Shown here: positions 3,783-27,518 of the stretch, piece after piece
Layout of the letters: every line of letters starts with the position of its first letter
How positions within the stretch are numbered: the stretch's first letter is position 1
Assembly: GCA_030426725.1 (NCBI GenBank)
Contig: JAUHXZ010000002.1
Location: 5,673 to 69,672, forward strand
Direction: 5' to 3'
DNA: 64,000 nt
Source: Actinomycetes bacterium
Lineage (GTDB): Bacteria > Actinomycetota > Actinomycetes > Propionibacteriales > Propionibacteriaceae
Notes under the pieces: generated by a model
The model's database searches: none
Told to the model about the DNA's origin: nothing
The model's input: the letters and a program-made list of their open reading frames with translations, nothing else
Position numbers and translations under genes: made by a program

Positions 3783-3890
3783 GAGGTGGTTCCTTCCCGC
3801 GCCAACCGCTATTTGATGGCGCGAACAGTGCCTGACGGCCGGTGGCATCCGGGCCGGCCGGCGTTGACCGACCGACCCGTAGCCGTTGGA

Positions 3891-4496
3891 TTACTTCGAG
3901 TAGAGCTCGACGATCATCTGCTCCTGGACGTCCACGACGATCTGCTCGCGGACGGGGAGCTGGTGCACGAGGATGCGCATGCGGTTCGGGCGGGCCTCAA
4001 GCCAGCCGGGAACGGTGCGCTCGTGGTGGGTCTCACGCGCGATCACGAACGGGCCCAGGTTCATCGACTTCTCGGCGACATCGATGATGTCGTGGGCGCG
4101 GACGCGGTACGACGGGATGTTCACGCGCTGGCCGTTGACCAGGAAGTGGCCGTGGACGACCAGCTGCCGGGCCTGACGGCGGGTGGCGGCGAAGCCCGAG
4201 CGGTACACGACGTTGTCGAGACGCGACTCGAGAATCTGGAGAAGACGGTCACCGGTCTTGCCGGGGTGACGGTCGGCCTCTTCGTAGTAGCGACGGAACT
4301 GCTTCTCGAGGATGCCGTAGGCGTAGCGCGCCTTCTGCTTCTCCTTGAGCTGCAGCGAGTACTCGGAGTCCTTGGTGCGGCCTCGGCCGTGCACACCCGG
4401 GGGGTACGGACGGCGCTCAAAAGCCTTGTCGTTGCCGACCAGGTCGGTCCCGAGACGACGGGACTTCTTGGTCAGTGGGCCGGTGTAACGAGCCAT
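3891..4496 (-). CDS. rpsD: 30S ribosomal protein S4
   Basis: MARYTGP...LESRLDNVVYR. Confidence 0.98.
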   Translation of the reverse strand: MARYTGPLTKKSRRLGTDLVGNDKAFERRPYPPGVHGRGRTKDSEYSLQLKEKQKARYAYGILEKQFRRYYEEADRHPGKTGDRLLQILESRLDNVVYRSGFAATRRQARQLVVHGHFLVNGQRVNIPSYRVRAHDIIDVAEKSMNLGPFVIARETHHERTVPGWLEARPNRMRILVHQLPVREQIVVDVQEQMIVELYSK

Positions 4497-17248: not shown

Positions 17249-17791
17249 TTACTTACCAGCCTTTCCAGCCTTGCGGCGGACGTGCTCGCCCGCGTAGCGG
17301 ACGCCCTTGCCCTTGTAGGGCTCGGGCTTGCGGAGCTTGCGGATGTTGGCCGCAGTCTCGCCGACCAGCTGCTTGTCGATGCCCGCCACCGTGAACTTGG
17401 TCGCGGACTCGACGGCGAAGGTAATGCCCTCCGGAGCGTCGACGACGATCGGGTGCGAGTAGCCGAGCGCGAACTCGAGCTGCTTCGGGCCCTTGGAGAT
17501 CACGCGGTAGCCGACGCCGACGATCTCGAGCTTCTTCTCGTAGCCGTCGGTGACACCGATGATCATGTTGTTGACCAGGGTGCGGGTGAGCCCGTGCAGC
17601 GAGCGGTTCTCACGCTCGTCGTCGGGACGCGACACCTCGATCTGGCCGGCATCGTTCTTCTCGAGCACGATCGGGCTGGCGACGGTGAGCGAAAGCGCCC
17701 CCTTGGGGCCCTTAACGTCGACCTGCTGGCCGTCGAGCTTCACGTCGACACCGGACGGGATGGCGATGGGGAGCCTGCCAATACGCGACAT
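17249..17791 (-). CDS. rplF: 50S ribosomal protein L6
   Basis: MSRIGRLPI...[13 protein letters not shown]. Confidence 0.98.
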
Positions 17792-17817
17792 ATCTGTTTC
17801 TCCTTACCTTCGCCCGG

Positions 17818-18222
17818 TCACCAGACGTAGGCGAGCACTTCGCCGCCCACGGACTTGGACTTGGCCTCACGGTCGGTCAGCAGACCATGCGAGGTGGAGA
17901 TGATGGCGATACCAAGGCCACCGAGCACCTTCGGAAGGTCGTTTGCCTTGGCGTAAACGCGCAGGCCCGGCTTGCTGATGCGGCGGAGTCCGGAGATCGA
18001 GCGCTCGCGCGAGTCCCCGTACTTGAGCGTCAGCTTGAGCACCTTGCCGACCTGGCCCTCGACCTCGGTCTGCTCGTAGCCCGAGATGAAGCCGTTGGCC
18101 TTCAGGATCTCCGCGATGCCCACCTTGATCTTGGACGACGGCATGGTCGCCGAATCCTGGTACGCCTGGTTGGCGTTCCGCAGACGCGTCAGCATGTCTG
18201 CGATCGGATCAGTCATGGTCAT
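17818..18222 (-). CDS. rpsH: 30S ribosomal protein S8
   Basis: [33 protein letters not shown]. Confidence 0.98.
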
Positions 18223-18241
18223 GACTTGTTGCCTCTTTCTC

Positions 18242-18274
18242 GCGCCGGTTTCCGGTCATTGCCGGACCTTGCGC
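18242..18274 (-). promoter_or_regulatory. Candidate S8-binding mRNA hairpin upstream of rpsH
   Basis: GCGC-AA-GG-UCCGG-loop-CCGGA-AA-CC-G-GCGC; same architecture as the rplN leader. Confidence 0.6.
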
Positions 18275-18304
18275 AACTTGAATTCTGTGAGTGAGTGGGT
18301 CCGG

Positions 18305-18490
18305 TCACCAGGACGACTTGGTCACGCCCGGCAGCTCGCCGGCGTGGGCCATTTCGCGCAGGCAGACGCGGCAGAGTCCGAACTTGCGGTAGACCGAGTG
18401 GGGTCGGCCGCACTTCTGGCACCGGGTGTACGCGCGCACGCCGAACTTCGGCTTACGGGACTGCTTGACCTTGAGTGCTGTCTTAGCCAT
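18305..18490 (-). CDS. rpsN: 30S ribosomal protein S14 (Zn-binding type Z)
   Basis: [21 protein letters not shown]. Confidence 0.97.
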
Positions 18491-18498
18491 GGCTCAGC

Positions 18499-19128
18499 TC
18501 ACTTCTTCTTCTTGGCGTAGTACGCGGGGCCGCGCTTCGACTTCTGCTTCTTCGGATCGTCGACGGCCTTGAACGGGAAACCGAGGTGCTTGAGGAGCGC
18601 TTTGCCCTCCGCGTCGTTGGTGGCCGAGGTCACGAACGTGATGTCCATGCCGCGCACGCGGTCGATCTTGTCCTGGTCGATCTCGAGGAACATGACCTGC
18701 TCGTTGAGACCGAAGGTGTAGTTGCCGTTGCCGTCGAACTGGCTGCCGTTGAGGCCACGGAAGTCGCGGATGCGGGGAAGAGCCAGCGTCAGCAGACGGT
18801 CGGCGAACTCCCACATGCGGTCACCGCGGAGGGTGACGTGGCAGCCGATCGGCTGGCCCTCGCGCAGCTTGAACTGCGCGATGGACTTGCGGGCCTTCGT
18901 GACGGACGGCTTCTGGCCGGTGATCGCGGTGAGGTCGCGGATGGCGCCCTCGATGATCTTCGAGTCACGTGCGGCCTCGCCGACGCCCATGTTCACCACG
19001 ATCTTGACCAGACCGGGGATCTGCATGACGTTGTCGTACTCGAACTCCTCCTGGAGCGTGGGAACGATCGTCTCGCGGTACTTGGCCTTGAGGCGCGGCA
19101 TTGCGGTGGTAGCTGCGGTGGCGGTCAT
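18499..19128 (-). CDS. rplE: 50S ribosomal protein L5
   Basis: [29 protein letters not shown]. Confidence 0.98.
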
Positions 19129-19499
19129 CAGATCTCCTCACCGGTCTTGCGGGCGATGCGCACAGAACGCTCCGCCTGGTACTCCGAGCCGTCGGGGCGA
19201 CGCTTGGTGACCTCGACGCGCTTGTGGCCGACGCGGGTCAGTACGTCCTTGCCGTCGACCTTGACCACGAGCTGCACGTTGGACACGTGGATCGGGGCCT
19301 CGACGGTGATGACGCCACCCTCGACGCGGCGGCCGGTGGCGGTCTGGGACTCGCGGCGGTGACGCTTGACGAGGTTGACGCCCTGGACGGTCACGCGCTG
19401 GTTCTCGGGATCGACGGCGATGATCTCGCTGACGGTGCCCTTGTCCTTGCCCGAGATGACCTTGACGCGGTCACCCTTCTTGATGTTGAGCGATGCCAT
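19128..19499 (-). CDS. rplX: 50S ribosomal protein L24
   Basis: [25 protein letters not shown]. Confidence 0.98.
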
Positions 19500-19500
19500 G

Positions 19501-19869
19501 TCAGATCACCTCCGGGGCGAGCGAGACGATGCGCATGAACTTCTTCTCGCGCAGCTCGCGGGCCACCGGGCCGAAGATGCGGGTGCCACGGGGCTCCCCG
19601 TCGTTCTTCAGGATGACGGCGGCGTTCTCGTCGAACTTGATGTAGGAACCGTCGGCGCGGCGACGCTCCTTGACGGTGCGGACGACGACGGCCTTGACCA
19701 CCTCGCCCTTCTTGACGTTGCCGCCAGGGATCGCGTCCTTGACGGTGGCGACGATGGTGTCGCCGAGGTAGGCGTAGCGGCGCTTGGAGCCACCGAGAAC
19801 ACGGATGCACAGGATTTCCTTGGCACCAGTGTTGTCGGCGACCTTCAGTCGCGACTCCTGCTGGATCAT
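19501..19869 (-). CDS. rplN: 50S ribosomal protein L14
   Basis: [18 protein letters not shown]...[12 protein letters not shown]; SD AAGGAG. Confidence 0.98.
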
Positions 19870-19884
19870 TACTTCTCCTTGTCC

Positions 19885-19914
19885 CACCGGTTCCCGCACA
19901 TGACAGGCCTTGTG
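19885..19914 (-). promoter_or_regulatory. Candidate S8-binding mRNA hairpin upstream of rplN
   Basis: CAC-AA-GG-CCUG-loop-CGGG-AA-CC-G-GUG, 4 nt upstream of the SD. Confidence 0.6.
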
Positions 19915-20035
19915 AAACTAGAAACGAACCCCCTGGATTTTGCCAGGAGGCAACCCCCAGCTCGAGGGAGAGGGAGCCATGGCGATGCCCGGGAAAGGTC
20001 CCCCCGAAGGGGCACAGACCCAGGGCAACTTGCTT

Positions 20036-20064
20036 AGTCTATCCCACGCGACCCGACGCGTGAA
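20036..20064 (-). promoter_or_regulatory. spc operon promoter
   Basis: TTCACG-N17-TAGACT. Confidence 0.5.
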
Positions 20065-20081
20065 ATCGCAGGCCCTTCCCC

Positions 20082-20123
20082 ATCGTGGCGGCAAGAATCA
20101 GCATGCTGACTCCCCCGCACACG
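20082..20123. repeat. 42-bp imperfect palindrome, direct-repeat copy 1
   Basis: 40/42 identical to 20934-20975; core TCAGCATGCTGA. Confidence 0.9.
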
Positions 20124-20136
20124 ACGACCTCGGAAC

Positions 20137-20886
20137 ACTCTCTCGCAAAGGACGGCCGCATACCTGCATGGTCTGGTGAGCGACCTTCCCCCGGTGCTGG
20201 AGGTCTCAGCGCCATTGGCGGCCGGGCTGCGCTCCACTTCGCGGTGCACCGTGCACCGCACGCGGGTCCCGCTGTGCCCCGTGGGCGCCCCGCCCCGCAC
20301 CTCACTCGAACAGACCGTCGTCGATCTCATCGACGACGCCCCCACCGAGTCCCACGTGCTGCAGATCCTGATGAAGGCGATCCAGGCGCGCATGAGTCTG
20401 CCCCGCTTCCTGGCTCAACTCGCAGCCAACCGCCGTGTCCGGCACCGCGGCTTCGTCCTGCGGGTGACGGCGATCGCGGAGGAGGGCGTCGAGTCGCATC
20501 TCGAACTCGAGTACCGCCGTCGGGCCGAACGTGCCCACGGACTTCCACGCTCGGTGCGGCAGAAGTGGGAGCGGATCCGTGGGCGCTGGATTCGCTCGGA
20601 CAACTGGTACCCGGGGTTCGGCGTGCGCGTCGAGCTCGACGGCGAACTCGCCCATCCGGGTAGGGCCACCGCGCAGGACCTCGTCCGGGACAACGACGTG
20701 CGTCTCAAGCTGGATGAGATCACTCTGCGCTACCGCTGGCGCCACGTGTGGGACTCGCCGTGCCTGGTCGCGGGTCAGGTCGCCGCCGCGCTGCGCAAGC
20801 GCGGCTGGCCGGACGTGCCGCAGCCGTGTTCGTCCGGGTGTGTGGCCCCAGCGGTCTTCGCGTCGCTCACCGCCAGTGGGACGTGA
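20137..20886 (+). pseudogene. 5'-truncated AbiEi-like/DUF559(Vsr)-like nuclease-domain gene
   Basis: Frame opens after TGA at 20107. TLSQRTAAYLHGL lies upstream of the GTG at 20176 and matches the family motif SHxTAAxLHGL; then GVESHLE, RSDNWY, VELDGELAH, RDN, TLRYRW. N-terminal HTH region absent. Confidence 0.6.
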
Positions 20887-20933: not shown

Positions 20934-20975
20934 ATCGTGGCGGCAAGTGTCAGCATGCTGACTCCCCCGCACACG
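20934..20975. repeat. 42-bp imperfect palindrome, direct-repeat copy 2
   Basis: Perfect 14-bp core GTCAGCATGCTGAC, flanked by CGTG-GCGG / CCGC-A-CACG arms. Confidence 0.9.
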
Positions 20976-20993: not shown

Positions 20994-23900
20994 TCACTCG
21001 CTGCGCAGGGCCTCCACCGGGTCCTTGTGGGACGCCGCCGTCGCCGGGATGAGGCCTGCCAGCAGCGTCAGACCCATGCTGACCAGGACGAGGATGCCCG
21101 CCGCCGCCCACGGCAGCTGCGCGATGTCCGGCACGTCGAAATTGGCGTACACGATCGCGTTGGCGGGGATCGTGAGCAGGAGCGTGATCGCGATGCCGAG
21201 CGCACCGGCGACGAAGCCGACGATGAGGGTCTCGGCGTTGAACACGCGGCGGATATCGCGCTTACTGGCGCCGATGGAGCGCAGGATGCCGATCTCCTTC
21301 TTGCGTTCCAGCACCGAGATGTAGGTGATGACCCCGATCATGATCGACGACACGACCAGCGAGATGGCGACGAAGGCCACGAGCACGTAGCTGACCATGT
21401 TGATGATCTCGGTCACCGACCCCATGAGGGCCCCCACGATGTCGGTGTAGGTGATGACCTTGTCCTCGTCGCCCTGGGCGCTCATCGCGTCGTTGTACTC
21501 GTCGAGGATCCGGATGACCTGTTCCTTGCTCTCGAAGTCGATCGGGTACAGATCGATGCCCGAGGGATCGGCCACGTCCGCATAGCCGAGCCGGCTGAGG
21601 TTGCCCTCGTAGGACGCCGACTCCACGGCGGCCATGGACACCAGCAACTGGGTGAGCTCCTCCTGCGTCTTGTCCATCTGGAAGGCGGACATGAAGGCGT
21701 CCTCGTCGATGCTCATCGCATCGGACATGTTCGTGGCGAGCTGGGTCATCGCCGAGTCGAGCGATGAGGCGATCTGGTCCTGGAGAGCGAACGCGACCTG
21801 GGCGCCGACCTGGTCCATGTAGACGTTCATCACCTCGCCCATGTACGAGGCGATGGCGCCCTGGAGCTGGTCCTCGAGCGCGCCGGTGTCGATGAGGCCC
21901 ATCGCCTCGTCGAGGAGCGCCTGCCCGTCCTCGGTCTCGAGGAAGGCTGGGAAGTTGCCCGCGACGTCGGTGAGGTCGAGGTCGTTGCTGATGGTGTAGT
22001 CCAGGTATCCCCCGACGAGCCTGACGAGCAGACCGGGCTCGCCGTCGAGGCCGGCGTCGGTGAGGATCTGCTGCCCGGCGTCGGACTCGATGAACAGCGG
22101 GAAGTTCGTGGCGAGATCGGCGGGGTCGAGACCGTTGGCGTCGACGTAGGCCTGGTAGCCGTCGGAGAGCGCCGTGACCGTCTCGGAGGCCTGGTCGAGG
22201 TCGAACTCGAACTCCGGCGTGTCCGGCAGCGTGATGAGCGAGCCGAGGTCCAGGTCCCCCAGCAGCGACGCCAGGTCCAGGTCCGGCATGAGCGACGGGT
22301 CGATGTCGATCTGCGGCATCGCCAGCCCGTCGAGCCCGGAGAGGTCGAGCTGGAGTTTCGACTGGTCGAAGGTGAAGGCGTCGGTGATCGCGTCCTCGTC
22401 CACCGTGATGAGCGACGTGAGGTCCAGGTCGTCCCCGGCCTCGTCGTCGGCGAAGCTGCGGCCGGAGAACACGTTGACGGACGGCTCGTCGAGCTGGTTG
22501 CGCACGATGTCCGTGCCGGCGGCCCGGTCCATGACGTGCCGGGTGAGCGCCGGGGTGTAGTAGACACCGGTGCTGAGCACCGACGTGTCACCGGTGGGCT
22601 GCACGACGCCGACGACGCGCAGACGATCCCCCGCGTCGACGAGTTCCCGGACGAGGTCGTCGTCCCCGCTCAGGTCGGTCCACACGTCGTACTGGTCGTC
22701 GTAGGAGTAGAAGTCCGTCGCGTTGACCAGCCGGAAGTCGACGCCCATGAGGTCGTCGTAGCTGAGCGTCATCGGGTCGTCGGAGACCTGCACAGGCTCC
22801 TCGTCGACGTACTGCCGGACCATGGTGTCGAGTTCTTCCGGGTCCCGCAGTCCCATGGCGTAGAGCGCGTAGTCGCTGATGCCGCCGCTGGGGGTGAGCA
22901 CCACGACGACCTCATCGGCCGCGGAGGGCCACCGGCCGGCCTTGACGTCGTACTGCTCGTCCACGAGCGACAGGTCGTCGACGAGTTCGGAGAACACGTC
23001 GCTGCCGCCGGCCGATCCGCCGAAACCGCCCGAAGGACCGCGGAACCCCACGGCACTGAAGGTGCTGTCGGGATTGACCTGCCGGGGCTCCTCCCCCGCG
23101 TCGGAGTAGATGAGCGGGGTCACGTCGTAGGCGTACTGGATGGAGTTGACGTAGTCGTCGATGCCGCCGCCGTTGTCGTCGAAGTACGACTTGAGGGAGG
23201 CGAGGTCGTTGGTGCCGACCCCCTCGAACATCGCCGAGACCATCTGGATCTCGTGCACGTCCCCCTCGTCGTCGCGTTCGGCTGTGGAGCTCATCTCGTC
23301 CATGAGCCCGGCCGAACTGGCCAGCAGGGCGGTGAGGTCGACGCCCCGCCGTTCAATGCTCAGCGGGTACATCGAGAGTGTGTCCTCCTCGACGCCCTTG
23401 ATGTAGGCGTTGACGCCGTTGGCGAGCGCCAGGATGGCCGCGATGCCGATGATCCCGATGCTGCCCGCGAAGGACGTCATCAGGGTGCGGCCCTTCTTGG
23501 TCATGAGGTTGTTGAACGACAGCGCGATGGCGGTGAGGAACGACATCGCCGTGCGCCGCACGGCTCGCCCCGCCTCCTCCATCTCCGTCTCGGGGTCGAA
23601 GGGATGGGTGTCGGCGGAGACGGCGCCGTCGCGGAGGTGCACGATGCGGTTGGCGTAGGTCTCCGCGAGCTCGGGGTTGTGGGTCACCATGATGACCAGC
23701 CGGTCCTTGGCGATGCTCGTGAGCAGGGCCATGATCTGCACGCTGGTCATGGAGTCCAGTGCGCCGGTCGGCTCGTCGGCCAGCAGGATCTCGGGATCGT
23801 TGACCAGGGCCCGGGCGATGGCGACGCGTTGCATCTGCCCGCCGGAGAGCTGGTTGGGGTGCTTGTGGATGTGCTCGACGAGCCCGACCTCGTCGAGTGC

Positions 23901-24272
23901 CTGCGTAGCGCGCCGGCGTCGCTCGGCCGGGGACACTCCTGCCAGAGTCAGCGCCAGCTCGACGTTCGACAGCACTGTCTGGTGCGGGATCAGGTTGTAG
24001 CTCTGGAAGACGAAGCCGATGCGGTTGTTGCGGTAGGTGTCCCAGTCGCGGTCGCTGTAGCGCTCGGTGGCCGTGCCGTCGATGACGAGGTTGCCCGAGT
24101 CGTAGTGGTCGAGGCCGCCGACGATGTTGAGCAGGGTGGTCTTGCCGGATCCGGAGGGGCCGAGGATGGCGACGAACTCGTTGTCTCGGAACGCGATCGA
24201 GACGTCGTCGAGCGCCACCTGGGTGAAGTCGCCGGTGGTGTACGACTTGCGCACGTCTGTGAGCTGGAGCAT
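20994..24272 (-). CDS. Fused ABC ATPase/permease (MacB/FtsX-like) with large acidic extracytoplasmic domain
   Basis: Walker [36 protein letters not shown]; C-terminal [16 protein letters not shown] FtsX-type permease; start trimmed to MLQLTDVRK. Confidence 0.92.
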
Positions 24273-24385
24273 GGCCTTCCTCTGCACGCGCCGTGGGACG
24301 GGACACGCGGCACAGCAATAATACGGTCCTGTATCAAACTCCCGGCCGCCGGCCCCGGGGCGGTGACGGGCCCGTCGACGACGAC

Positions 24386-24414
24386 GGCCCGCCCCTCGCG
24401 GTGAGGGACGGGCC
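24386..24414 (-). terminator. Hairpin after the opuA-type operon
   Basis: GGCCCG-CCCCTC...GAGGG-A-CGGGCC. Confidence 0.5.
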
Positions 24415-24431
24415 ATCGGGCGCGTTGTCGG

Positions 24432-25343
24432 TCAGGACATAGAGGGGATGACGTCCGGGTTGGCGTCCATCCAAGCGGTGATGGCCTCGGACTCTTCGCC
24501 CTCCGCGTACTCGTTGACCACGGTGTCCTCGAGGTCACCGTACTGGTCGTTGAGGTTCAGCTCGGCGACCCAGTCGACGACCTCGGGGTACTCCTCGGAG
24601 AAGCCCTCCGTGGCCAGGAAGTGCAGGGCCTCGGAGCCACCGAGGGCACCCTCGGGATCCTCGAGGTCACGCATGTCGAAGACCGAGTTGGCCCAGAACG
24701 GACGCCACAGGGTGACGACGATCTCCTCCTCGGCCTCGGTCTTGGTCTTGAGCTCGGCCAGCATCGCGGTGGTCGACGACGTGACGAGCTCGAAGTCCTC
24801 GAGACCGTAGGCCGGGATCACGCTGTCCTGCGAGGCGGCGGTAAGGCCCGCGCCGGGCTCGATGCCGATGATCTTGCTCTCGAGGGCATCCGCGTAGTCC
24901 GGGATGTCCGCGATGGACTGGATCTCCGAGTAGGACGGCACCGCCCAGGTGAGCTTGGCGTTGTCGTAGTACGTGCCGAGGTCCTCGATGGTGTCGCCGT
25001 ACTCCTCCATGTAGGAGGCGTGGGTGACCTCGGGCCATGCCGACGGGTACACGTCGATGTCGCCCTGAGAGAGCGCGGTGTACAGCGGGCCGGCCTCGCT
25101 GAGCTCTTCGGTCTCGACCGTGTAGCCGGCGTTCTCGAGCTCGAGCTTGAGGAGGTTGCCCATGGTGCGGCCGTCGCTCCAGGAGGGGATGAAGCCCAGG
25201 GTGATGGTGCCCATCTCGCCGTCGCCGGAGTCGCCTCCGGCAGCGGCCTCGCCGCCCTCGGTCGAGGAGCAGGCACCAAGGGCGGTGGCCGCGGCCAGCG
25301 CGATTGCGCCGGCGCCGAAGCGTCGCAGTGTCTTCTTGTTCAT
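24432..25343 (-). CDS. Glycine betaine/proline ABC substrate-binding lipoprotein (OpuAC/ProX-like)
   Basis: Lipobox LGAC; SAWPEVTH, IIGIEPGAG, LWRPFW aromatic-cage residues. Confidence 0.9.
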   Translation of the reverse strand: MNKKTLRRFGAGAIALAAATALGACSSTEGGEAAAGGDSGDGEMGTITLGFIPSWSDGRTMGNLLKLELENAGYTVETEELSEAGPLYTALSQGDIDVYPSAWPEVTHASYMEEYGDTIEDLGTYYDNAKLTWAVPSYSEIQSIADIPDYADALESKIIGIEPGAGLTAASQDSVIPAYGLEDFELVTSSTTAMLAELKTKTEAEEEIVVTLWRPFWANSVFDMRDLEDPEGALGGSEALHFLATEGFSEEYPEVVDWVAELNLNDQYGDLEDTVVNEYAEGEESEAITAWMDANPDVIPSMS

Positions 25344-25365
25344 GGGGGATTTCCTTTCTTGTCGG

Positions 25366-26301
25366 TCAGGCCGCGGCTGGTGCCACTGCCTGTTCCTTGA
25401 CTTCCTGGTCCTTCATGGCCCGCTCGCGGCGAGCCCTCCACTTCGAGAGAAGGGAGTGAGGATAGTCGGCCGGGTCGCCCAGAGCGGCGGTGAAGCGGTC
25501 GAGGAAGATCGCCAGGAAGACGATCGAGAGACCGGCCTCGACACCACGGGCGGTGTTGATGGTGGACAGTGCGCCCACGACCTCCTTGCCGAGGCCGTCC
25601 GCGCCGACCATGCCGGCGATGACGGCCATCGAGAGTGCGAGCATGATGACCTGGTTGATACCGGCCATGATCGTGGGAAGGGCGAGCGGCAACTGGATGC
25701 CCCGCAGGATCTCCCAGTCGGTCGCGCCGAACGACTCACCGGCCTCGACGGTCTCCTTGTCGACGCCGCGGATGCCGAGCTCGGTGAACCGGACGCCGGG
25801 CGGCAGCGAGAAGACGATGGTGCTGAACAGGCCCGGCACGACGCCGATGCTGAAGAACACGATGGCCGGGATGAGGTAGACCATCGCGGGCATGGTCTGC
25901 ATCAGGTCCAGGATCGGCTTGACGATCGCGCTGACCCGGGCGCTCTTGGCGGCCCAGATGCCCACCGGGATCCCGATGATGATCGCGGTGAAGGTCGCGA
26001 TGAGGACCAGCGCCAGTGTCTGCATGGCCTGGGTCCACTGCCCCATGCTCATGATGAGCAGGAACGAGACCACGACCCCGACGCCGAGGCGCCAGGAGCG
26101 GACGAACCAGGCCAGCGCCGCGAAGATCAGAACCATGATCAGCGGTGGCGGCGCCAGAAGCACGTTGACGAGCGCGTCGTTGATCGCGGTGCCCGTGACC
26201 TTGATGAAGTCGAGCAGGAACCTGAGGTACTCGTTGACCCAGTCGATACCATCGGCGACCCAGTCACCGATGGGGATGGCGGGAGGGAAGTTCTCGATCA
26301 C
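25366..26301 (-). CDS. Glycine betaine ABC permease (OpuAB/ProW-like)
   Basis: LDLMQTMPAMVYLIP, EAGESFGA, GINQVIMLALSM. Confidence 0.93.
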   Translation of the reverse strand: MIENFPPAIPIGDWVADGIDWVNEYLRFLLDFIKVTGTAINDALVNVLLAPPPLIMVLIFAALAWFVRSWRLGVGVVVSFLLIMSMGQWTQAMQTLALVLIATFTAIIIGIPVGIWAAKSARVSAIVKPILDLMQTMPAMVYLIPAIVFFSIGVVPGLFSTIVFSLPPGVRFTELGIRGVDKETVEAGESFGATDWEILRGIQLPLALPTIMAGINQVIMLALSMAVIAGMVGADGLGKEVVGALSTINTARGVEAGLSIVFLAIFLDRFTAALGDPADYPHSLLSKWRARRERAMKDQEVKEQAVAPAAA

Positions 26302-27518
26302 AGGTTCGCTCCTTCGGCTTCCTTGGACGACGGCTCTTCGGTAACGCCGCCGCTGACGGCCGCGAGCAGCGTGACACGCGGAATCACGCCCGCGACGCGC
26401 CCATCGGGATCCGTCACCACGAGCGGCGAACGGTGCTGGGCCGAGCGCTCGAACAGTTCGTGGACCGGAGTGGACTCATCGACGAGGGGCATCTCGTGCC
26501 TGGTCGAGAAGGGCAGGTCGTGCCGGCCGGTCCTGACGGCCTCGGCCACGTCGTCCTCCCAGACCATCCCAACGGGCTTCTTCTGCCTGTCGACGACGAG
26601 GAGCCACGACGGCTGGTTCTCACGGAGCAGCTTGTGCGCGGCCTGCGGCCCGAGCTCGCGGCCGATCACGGCGTAGGGCGGCTCGGCGATGCTGCCGGCG
26701 GTGAGCACTCTTGTCCGGTCGACGTCGGCGACGAAGCGCGCGACGTAGTTGCTCGCGGGGTCGTTGAGGATCTCCTCGGCGGTTCCCACCTGTTCGATCC
26801 GGCCGTCGCGCATCATGGCGATGCGGTCGCCGAGACGCATGGCCTCGTTGAGGTCGTGTGTGATGAACAGGATGGTCTTGCCGAGCTTCTGCTGCAGCTC
26901 GATGAGCTGGTCCTGCATGCCACGGCGGATGAGCGGGTCGAGCGCGGAGAACGCCTCGTCCATCAGCATGATGTCGGTCCCGGCCGCGAGTGCGCGCGCC
27001 AGACCGACGCGCTGCTGCATACCGCCGGACAGCTCGCCCGGCTTGTAGTTACCCCAGCCGCCGAGGCCGACCATCTCGAGCGCCTCGTTCGCCTTGGCCT
27101 CGCGCTCGGTGCGGTTCATGCCCTGGATCTTGAGGCCGTAGGCGGCGTTCTCGCCGACGGTGCGGTGCGGTAGCAGTGCGAAGTGCTGGAACACCATCGA
27201 CACCTTGTGGCGGCGCACCTTGAGAAGCTCGGACGAGCTGAGCTTGCTCAGCGGCTCGCCCTGGATGGACATCTCCCCCGCGGTGAGCGGAAGGAGTCCG
27301 TTGACCATGCGGATGATCGTCGACTTGCCGGAGCCCGACAGGCCCATGACGACGAAGATCTCACCGGGCTCCACCTCGAAGCTCGCGTCGATGACGGCGG
27401 CGGTGTTCCCGCGCTTCTGCAGCTCCTCGCGGGTGGCGCCGGCCTGCAACTGCTTGACCGCGGCTTCCGGCCGTCGGCCGAAGACCTTGTAAATGTTCGA
27501 TGCTGAGATCGCGCTCAC
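26298..27518 (-). CDS. Glycine betaine ABC ATPase with CBS region (OpuAA/ProV-like)
   Basis: GLSGSGKST, LSGGMQQRVGLARALA, LMDEAFSALDP. Confidence 0.94.
   Translation of the reverse strand: MSAISASNIYKVFGRRPEAAVKQLQAGATREELQKRGNTAAVIDASFEVEPGEIFVVMGLSGSGKSTIIRMVNGLLPLTAGEMSIQGEPLSKLSSSELLKVRRHKVSMVFQHFALLPHRTVGENAAYGLKIQGMNRTEREAKANEALEMVGLGGWGNYKPGELSGGMQQRVGLARALAAGTDIMLMDEAFSALDPLIRRGMQDQLIELQQKLGKTILFITHDLNEAMRLGDRIAMMRDGRIEQVGTAEEILNDPASNYVARFVADVDRTRVLTAGSIAEPPYAVIGRELGPQAAHKLLRENQPSWLLVVDRQKKPVGMVWEDDVAEAVRTGRHDLPFSTRHEMPLVDESTPVHELFERSAQHRSPLVVTDPDGRVAGVIPRVTLLAAVSGGVTEEPSSKEAEGANL

Follow-up and report, generated by a model that had tools for sequence, protein, structure and literature searches.

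Two leaders of the ribosomal spc gene cluster in this member of the Propionibacteriaceae, one in front of rplN and the other in front of rpsH, carry hairpins that are conserved, covary, hold a fixed position and are each retrieved by a covariance model built from sites of the other kind. From comparison of sequences, we propose that they are probably two uS8 translational operators on the spc mRNA, acting as mimics of helix 21 (h21) of 16S rRNA. The rplN hairpin had been singled out in a first-pass annotation of the same DNA as a second S8-site-like element, and one repressor, most plausibly S8, had been suggested for both leaders.

The window analysed here is the whole 64,000-nt stretch of DNA, in which the spc genes lie on the minus strand in the order rplN, rplX, rplE, rpsN, an 82-nt gap, rpsH and rplF onward. 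The features on which the argument turns are as follows.

19918-19881, minus strand: rplN-leader hairpin, full helix (sequence, fold, covariation in alignment A2 and a score of 48.7 bits with model R2)
19914-19885, minus strand: core part of the rplN-leader hairpin, reading CACAAGGCCUGUCAUGUGCGGGAACCGGUG
19880-19875, minus strand: rplN Shine-Dalgarno sequence (SD) AAGGAG, abutting the 3' end of the full helix
19869-19501, minus strand: rplN (uL14) coding sequence, with its ATG at 19869 and a product 81-97% identical to those of relatives
18490-18305, minus strand: rpsN, encoding a 61-aa S14, last gene of the rplN-rplX-rplE-rpsN block
18276-18240, minus strand: rpsH-leader hairpin in the rpsN-rpsH gap (covariation in alignments A1 and A3 and a score of 49.4 bits with model R1)
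18237-18232, minus strand: rpsH SD AAGAGG, 9 nt before the ATG at 18222
18222-17818, minus strand: rpsH, encoding a canonical uS8 (Pfam Ribosomal_S8, 1.4e-48; PDB uS8 chains, 1e-61)

ViennaRNA folds positions 19914-19885 as (((..(((((((.....)))))..)).))) at -7.3 kcal/mol, which is the hairpin drawn in the first-pass annotation, and the 3' end of this stretch does lie 4 nt before AAGGAG, as had been stated. The full helix has the outer stem GUUUCAC/GUGGGAC and the inner stem CCUG(U)/(G)CGGG, with a core made of A19910, G19909 and G19908 on the 5' strand and A19892, A19891, C19890 and C19889 on the 3' strand. The bulges described previously are real, but the fixed AA/G internal loop is not: only three unpaired nucleotides are conserved, namely A19910, which stands singly, and the two A residues bulged at 19892-19891, and the closing position (the second 'A' and the 3' 'G') is variable, being A.G here and C:G in many relatives. 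The rpsH-leader hairpin reads UUGCGC A A GG UCCGG caauga CCGGA AA CC G GCGCGA, with a 7-nt core identical to that of the rplN hairpin, and the uS8 encoded just downstream has the conserved I-S-T-S RNA-contact tripeptide. The S8-like rplN hairpin is followed by AAGGAG and by no U tract, and is thus not an intrinsic terminator or attenuator. A promoter/terminator scan of the 82-nt rpsN-rpsH gap returned no promoter-like or terminator-like site, so that the 'split' spc operon of the first-pass annotation can be at most a break in translational coupling, a transcriptional split being unsupported.

Two covariance models were used, R1 built from rpsH sites only and R2 from rplN sites only. Over the whole 2.9-Mb genome R2 gave exactly two matches, at the rplN leader (48.7 bits) and at the rpsH leader (28.7 bits, E 1.7e-4), and R1, run without filters in the 64-kb window, ranked the rplN site third (15.5 bits, E 0.026). 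The second-ranked R1 match in the window (3794-3827) was rejected, as it comprises the outer stem only and the core is missing. The cross-hits between R1 and R2 were repeated in Tessaracoccus and Propionibacteriaceae loci, bearing out the earlier view that both leaders carry one motif. Matches had also been predicted to sit before rplN and rpsH, and that is where they fell: 29 of the best 30 R2 loci lie directly before rplN, and all of the best 30 R1 loci in the gap before rpsH. Among 80 named loci, every match with E <= 0.26 is at the rplN or rpsH position, the rplN-leader matches ending 10-17 nt before the rplN start. Across a class sample of 151 genomes, R1 matched 66 and R2 matched 42, almost always once per genome, with R1 alone in 43 genomes and R2 alone in 19; at least seven of these last 19 matches are outside spc genes, and strict model filters probably lose further sites in this sample. 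The 42 genomes matched by R2 comprise about 34 with rplN sites, five with a locus upstream of an RNase E/G gene (discussed below) and a few stray matches. Three of the R2 matches (L063, L188 and L184) have no spc context and were treated as chance; that in L063 is antisense to a coding sequence starting just downstream on the opposite strand, and that in L188 lies inside a P-loop NTPase-like frame. Some model matches with E-values around 1e-5 are clearly spurious, at least one at ~4e-5 plainly so, and the E-values of these short models are accordingly rough.

The rplN leader is conserved along its whole length across the genus, its hairpin immediately precedes rplN in 28 of 30 loci from relatives, and the same hairpin is found ahead of rplN in many Actinomycetia, among them further genera and families whose stems differ in sequence. 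In the alignment of rplN sites (A2, 23 sequences), 84% of cells are paired, compensatory change is seen in 7 of the 14 pairs, and the covariation score is 0.385 against 0.207 in shuffled alignments; none of 500 shuffles reached either the score or the share of paired cells, and in slid registers pairing collapsed to 28-50%. The alignment of rpsH sites (A1, 26 sequences) behaved similarly, with 86% pairing, compensatory change in 8 of 14 pairs, and a covariation score of 0.376 (0.140 in shuffles) that, like the paired-cell share, was reached by 0 of 500 shuffles. A wider model-based alignment (A3) of 77 distinct sequences, three rows of which are rplN cross-hits, raised the number of pairs with compensatory change to 11 of 14. 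Throughout A2 (23/23) and A1 (26/26) the A/GG...AA/CC core is invariant while the stems vary.

Named carriers include Tessaracoccus, other Propionibacteriaceae, Microlunatus, Nocardioides, Isoptericola, Cellulomonas fimi, Schaalia/Actinomyces, Propionibacterium, Arthrobacter, Oryzobacter and many Streptomyces. Where rpsQ abuts rplN (Microbacterium, Planktophila, Micropruina and some Nocardioides), the rplN site is missing and the rpsH site is kept. Gordonia (L119, L164) has an rplN leader without the S8-like hairpin, and rpsH is not found within 1.5 kb downstream of rpsN, so that from these loci the layout in Mycobacteriales seems to differ. In Streptomyces (L115 and others, ~2520-2588 and ~4150-4240), both leader hairpins bear long apical extensions, the matches spanning ~50-83 nt with the AGG/AACC core kept; these extensions parallel the freely varying distal stem of the E. 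coli operator. In another class of the phylum (L175 and L178, ~1500-1540), a motif of the C:G type defined below for rplN sites occupies the rplE-rpsN gap, and rpsH follows rpsN after only ~19 nt, the two genes being tightly linked. The presence of the site before a linked rpsN-rpsH pair suggests that the operator shifts its place along with whichever gene block includes rpsH.

The primary uS8 site on 16S rRNA is a helix interrupted by seven conserved nucleotides, with a G597-C643 pair, an invariant A642, and a purine at 595 that forms a triple with the Watson-Crick pair 596-644, A-(A-U) in E. coli and G-(C-G) in Thermus (PMC4176348). We took the site within h21 as E. coli nt 588-603/635-651 and, the host MAG having no 16S gene, made the comparison with 16S sequences of relatives. 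In a genus relative the h21 sequence is ...GUC-G-C-G-U-C-G.../...C-G-A-U-A-C-G-G...; A595 occurs in another family of the same order. The leaders and h21 have in common a 3+4 internal loop, a bulged purine 595, a paired 596:644, G597:C643 and A642, the leader equivalents being A at 595, G:C at 596:644, G:C at 597:643 and A at 642. The A at the 595 equivalent (alignment position A11) is invariant in A1 and A2, as is the A at the 642 equivalent, which is kept in all sites inspected by eye, and the 597:643 equivalent is G:C in 23/23 sequences of A2 and 77/77 of A3. At the 596:644 equivalent, 76 rows of A3 have G:C and one, from Planktophila, has A:U, a compensatory exchange by which this sequence matches the E. 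coli core AAG/AACU exactly. Both A and U occur at the 641 equivalent, U being found in Isoptericola, Cellulomonas and others. Two further features bring the leaders closer to rRNA: the rpsH sites, the host's included, have U598:A640 and C599:G639 as rRNA does, and in the rplN leader the lower stem (GUUU.../...GAC) is similar to that of h21, with compensatory differences.

The likeness has clear bounds. The h21 of the genus relative has G595, C596:G644 and U641, the leader equivalents being A, G:C and A (or U), and the 39-nt apical part of h21 gives way to a short stem-loop in the leaders. With filters off, neither R1 nor R2 matched h21 in four rRNA operons, so the argument for mimicry stands on a manual, rule-by-rule comparison of a small core. 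In the comparison with h21 that the first-pass annotation had called for, the core agrees with the published definition of the uS8 site but the models do not find h21.

Feedback by S8 on the spc operon is a textbook case, known for E. coli and its close relatives only, and the S8-interacting spc operator of E. coli is reportedly the subject of Cerretti (1988) and Merianos (2004). That operator overlaps the start of rplE (Fu et al. 2013, PMC3616713), and has bulged AA at the 641/642 equivalents, with A8 A9 C10 U11 on its 5' side and A80 A81 on its 3' side (PMC4176348, PMC3616713). The actinobacterial leaders share with it the operon, the presumed ligand uS8 and the logic of repression by an rRNA mimic, along with a core of bulged AA, a G:C pair and an A beside a Watson-Crick pair. 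In contrast, the actinobacterial sites are untranslated and precede rplN and rpsH, whereas the E. coli operator lies in coding sequence at the rplE start; the strand order of the leaders is that of h21 (AGG 5', AACC 3') and is reversed in E. coli; and there are two sites, found in Actinomycetota, as opposed to one of the E. coli type in gamma-proteobacteria. R1 and R2, run on the window with filters off, gave no match near the rplE start at 19128, and the arrangement does differ from the single rplE site of E. coli in the way the first-pass annotation had supposed. Given these differences in position, translation, strand order, number and distribution, we read the leaders as analogous to the E. 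coli operator and not homologous to it. A precedent for two copies of an operator in one cluster is offered by the dual L1-interacting RNA sites before rplK and rplA in Firmicutes (PMC3616713), which differ from the spc leaders in protein, motif and phylum.

The motif is not an annotated leader family: Rfam 15 gave no match at gathering score in the 64-kb window, and at E <= 10 only two weak and unrelated matches in 17700-20300. Most E. coli ribosomal-protein regulatory RNAs are narrowly confined to Gammaproteobacteria (Fu et al. 2013, PMC3616713), and a 2024 review states that spc regulation outside the gamma-proteobacteria "remains unknown" and that phylogenetic studies "have not been advanced" (PMC10931766). 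Full-text literature searches returned no description of an actinobacterial S8 operator or rplN leader. The leaders would accordingly fill a gap in Rfam, suggest how actinobacteria control the spc operon, and add one more case in which mimicry of rRNA arose independently for the same protein, in a two-operator layout. They are short and sharply defined, and occur in the tractable genera Streptomyces, Arthrobacter, Cellulomonas, Nocardioides and Propionibacterium, which makes the question of spc control directly testable.

We infer that uS8 is the ligand, that translational repression is the effect and that one protein serves both sites. Under this model, uS8 in excess over free 16S rRNA would bind both leader helices, which end 10-20 nt before the start codons, at or next to the SD, and the bound protein together with the stabilised helix would deny the 30S subunit access to the ribosome-binding site. 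In the host lineage, the helix of the rplN leader may extend to pair with the SD itself: in the minimum free energy (MFE) fold of this leader the SD AGGAG is paired with a UUUCU element, and the helix is thereby longer.

19925-19921, minus strand: UUUCU helix extension, partner of the SD in the MFE fold and kept only in the host's subgroup of the genus

Repression of rplN-rplX-rplE-rpsN would come from the first operator, and that of rpsH with the downstream genes coupled to it from the second; the two operators may differ in affinity owing to their base pairs at 598:640. All rplN sites in A2 (23/23) have C:G at this equivalent, unlike the U598:A640 of rRNA, whereas 73 of the 77 A3 rows, taken from rpsH-type sites, have U:A, the others being the three rplN cross-hits and one gap.

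That same distinction gives an opening to a different reading, in which only the rpsH site belongs to uS8, the rplN hairpin is an operator for uL14, uL24, uL5 or uS14, and the shared core is convergent. The sites of rplN and rpsH type are partly independent in distribution, and the C:G type stands directly before rpsN in the other class, making uS14 a formal candidate ligand there. Yet the site before rpsN in that class also precedes a tightly linked rpsH, the seven core nucleotides and the bulge geometry of the rplN hairpin are identical at the rpsH site, and the models built from the two kinds of site detect each other. The lower stem of the rplN leader is moreover the one that resembles h21, and no likeness was seen to the rRNA sites of uL14, uL24, uL5 or uS14, a comparison for which the models were run on rRNA operons only, with no match. 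We regard an operator for another protein at rplN as unlikely, and retain uS8 as the proposed ligand of both leaders.

Outside the spc cluster, the best R2 match in a Streptomyces-like genus with 8-9 Mb genomes lies upstream of an RNase E/G gene and not in the rplN leader. The hairpin there is nearly identical to the rplN type (UUUCGCC A GG CC...GG AA CC GGCGAGAC; in full GACUUUCGCC-A-GG-CCGU.CGC...GCG.ACGG-AA-CC-GGCGAGAC), and in five of five genomes it follows a DUF2344 gene and precedes the RNase E/G gene (1402 aa) by 147-194 nt (L180 ~1501-1549, L182 and L185-L187; L190 6099-6146, minus strand). Its inner stem has one compensatory change among the five genomes. Either the uS8 regulon is wider than the spc operon, or the hairpin has a ligand other than uS8. 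A uS8 regulon in Actinomycetota, reached through non-homologous h21 mimics whose placement varies with lineage and taking in rplN, rpsH, rpsN (in the other class) and the Streptomyces RNase E leader, is a tentative and rather unlikely extension of our proposal; if true, it would tie the state of ribosome assembly directly to global mRNA decay.

The RNase E/G locus also invites a view of the hairpin as a determinant of RNA decay or processing, such as an RNase E-responsive or protective 5' stem-loop, and RNase E genes are indeed autoregulated through their leaders, as for E. coli rne. Such a role would account for a near-identical hairpin upstream of RNase E/G in all five Streptomyces-like genomes, but it leaves unexplained why an invariant unpaired A and AA obey the rules of uS8 binding and why a sister site stands exactly before the uS8 gene. 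The rplN-leader sites of the named loci keep a fixed distance of 10-17 nt from the rplN start, and the host genome has no such hairpin before rne, the two R2 matches being those in the spc leaders. A decay or processing element is, to our mind, very unlikely, and the reading of the leaders as paired uS8 operators is the one carried forward.

Within the host genome alone, neither hairpin stands out. The folding energy of the rplN hairpin is ordinary (z = -0.07, with 86 of 200 shuffles folding equally well), as is that of the rpsH hairpin (z -0.88), and z-scores for folding energy of the whole leaders were likewise non-significant. A loose descriptor of the motif (stem / A GG / stem-loop / AA CC / stem) has 93 matches in the genome, where Markov simulations give ~68, and of these matches only the two spc sites unite long stems with a compact span. 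The statement in the first-pass annotation that two such leaders in one operon are unlikely by chance can therefore not rest on the host genome, where energy and descriptor frequency give it no backing, and stands only on the comparative evidence of position and covariation. A chance likeness between ordinary GC-rich hairpins with no shared function, for which one could cite the ordinary energies, the common descriptor and the spurious nature of some model matches at E ~1e-5 (one of them antisense within a coding sequence), is barely credible, being already contradicted by comparative sequence data, which show positional conservation and covariation of the two sites in many families and at least two classes, with core nucleotides constant while the stems change.

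Upstream of the S8-like hairpin, the rplN leader holds a second conserved hairpin and a possible promoter.

19951-19928, minus strand: second conserved rplN-leader hairpin, CCUCCUGG-CAAAAU-CCAGGGGG, followed by a U-rich tract
20064-20036, minus strand: possible rplN promoter, TTCACG-17 nt-TAGACT, identified by eye, below the scan threshold and unreported by the scan

The second hairpin is terminator-like, and is the sole terminator-like site near the rplN leader in the promoter/terminator scan. This hairpin, with its CAAAAU loop (CUGGCAAAAUCCAG), is unique in the host genome and present in the rplN leaders of Arthrobacter and Gordonia; the loop was absent from the 16S and the first 1.1 kb of the 23S rRNA of relatives. 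The -10-like box of the possible promoter is kept in relatives.

Further upstream, ~8 kb of transporter genes on the same strand (20994-27518, minus) separates rplN from rpsQ.

28152-27871, minus strand: rpsQ, upstream of the transporter insert

The products of the insert are an OpuA-like ABC ATPase that carries a CBS domain, a permease, a binding protein of the glycine-betaine type and a MacB-like ABC/FtsX fusion of 1140 aa, and the insert detaches rplN from the S10 operon, so that rplN would need a promoter of its own. Between the insert and the presumed rplN promoter, and close to the latter, direct repeats (gtgtgcgggggagtcagcatgctga...) at 20082-20123 and 20934-20975 bracket a relic of ~850 bp with a plus-strand reading frame that matches no Pfam family.
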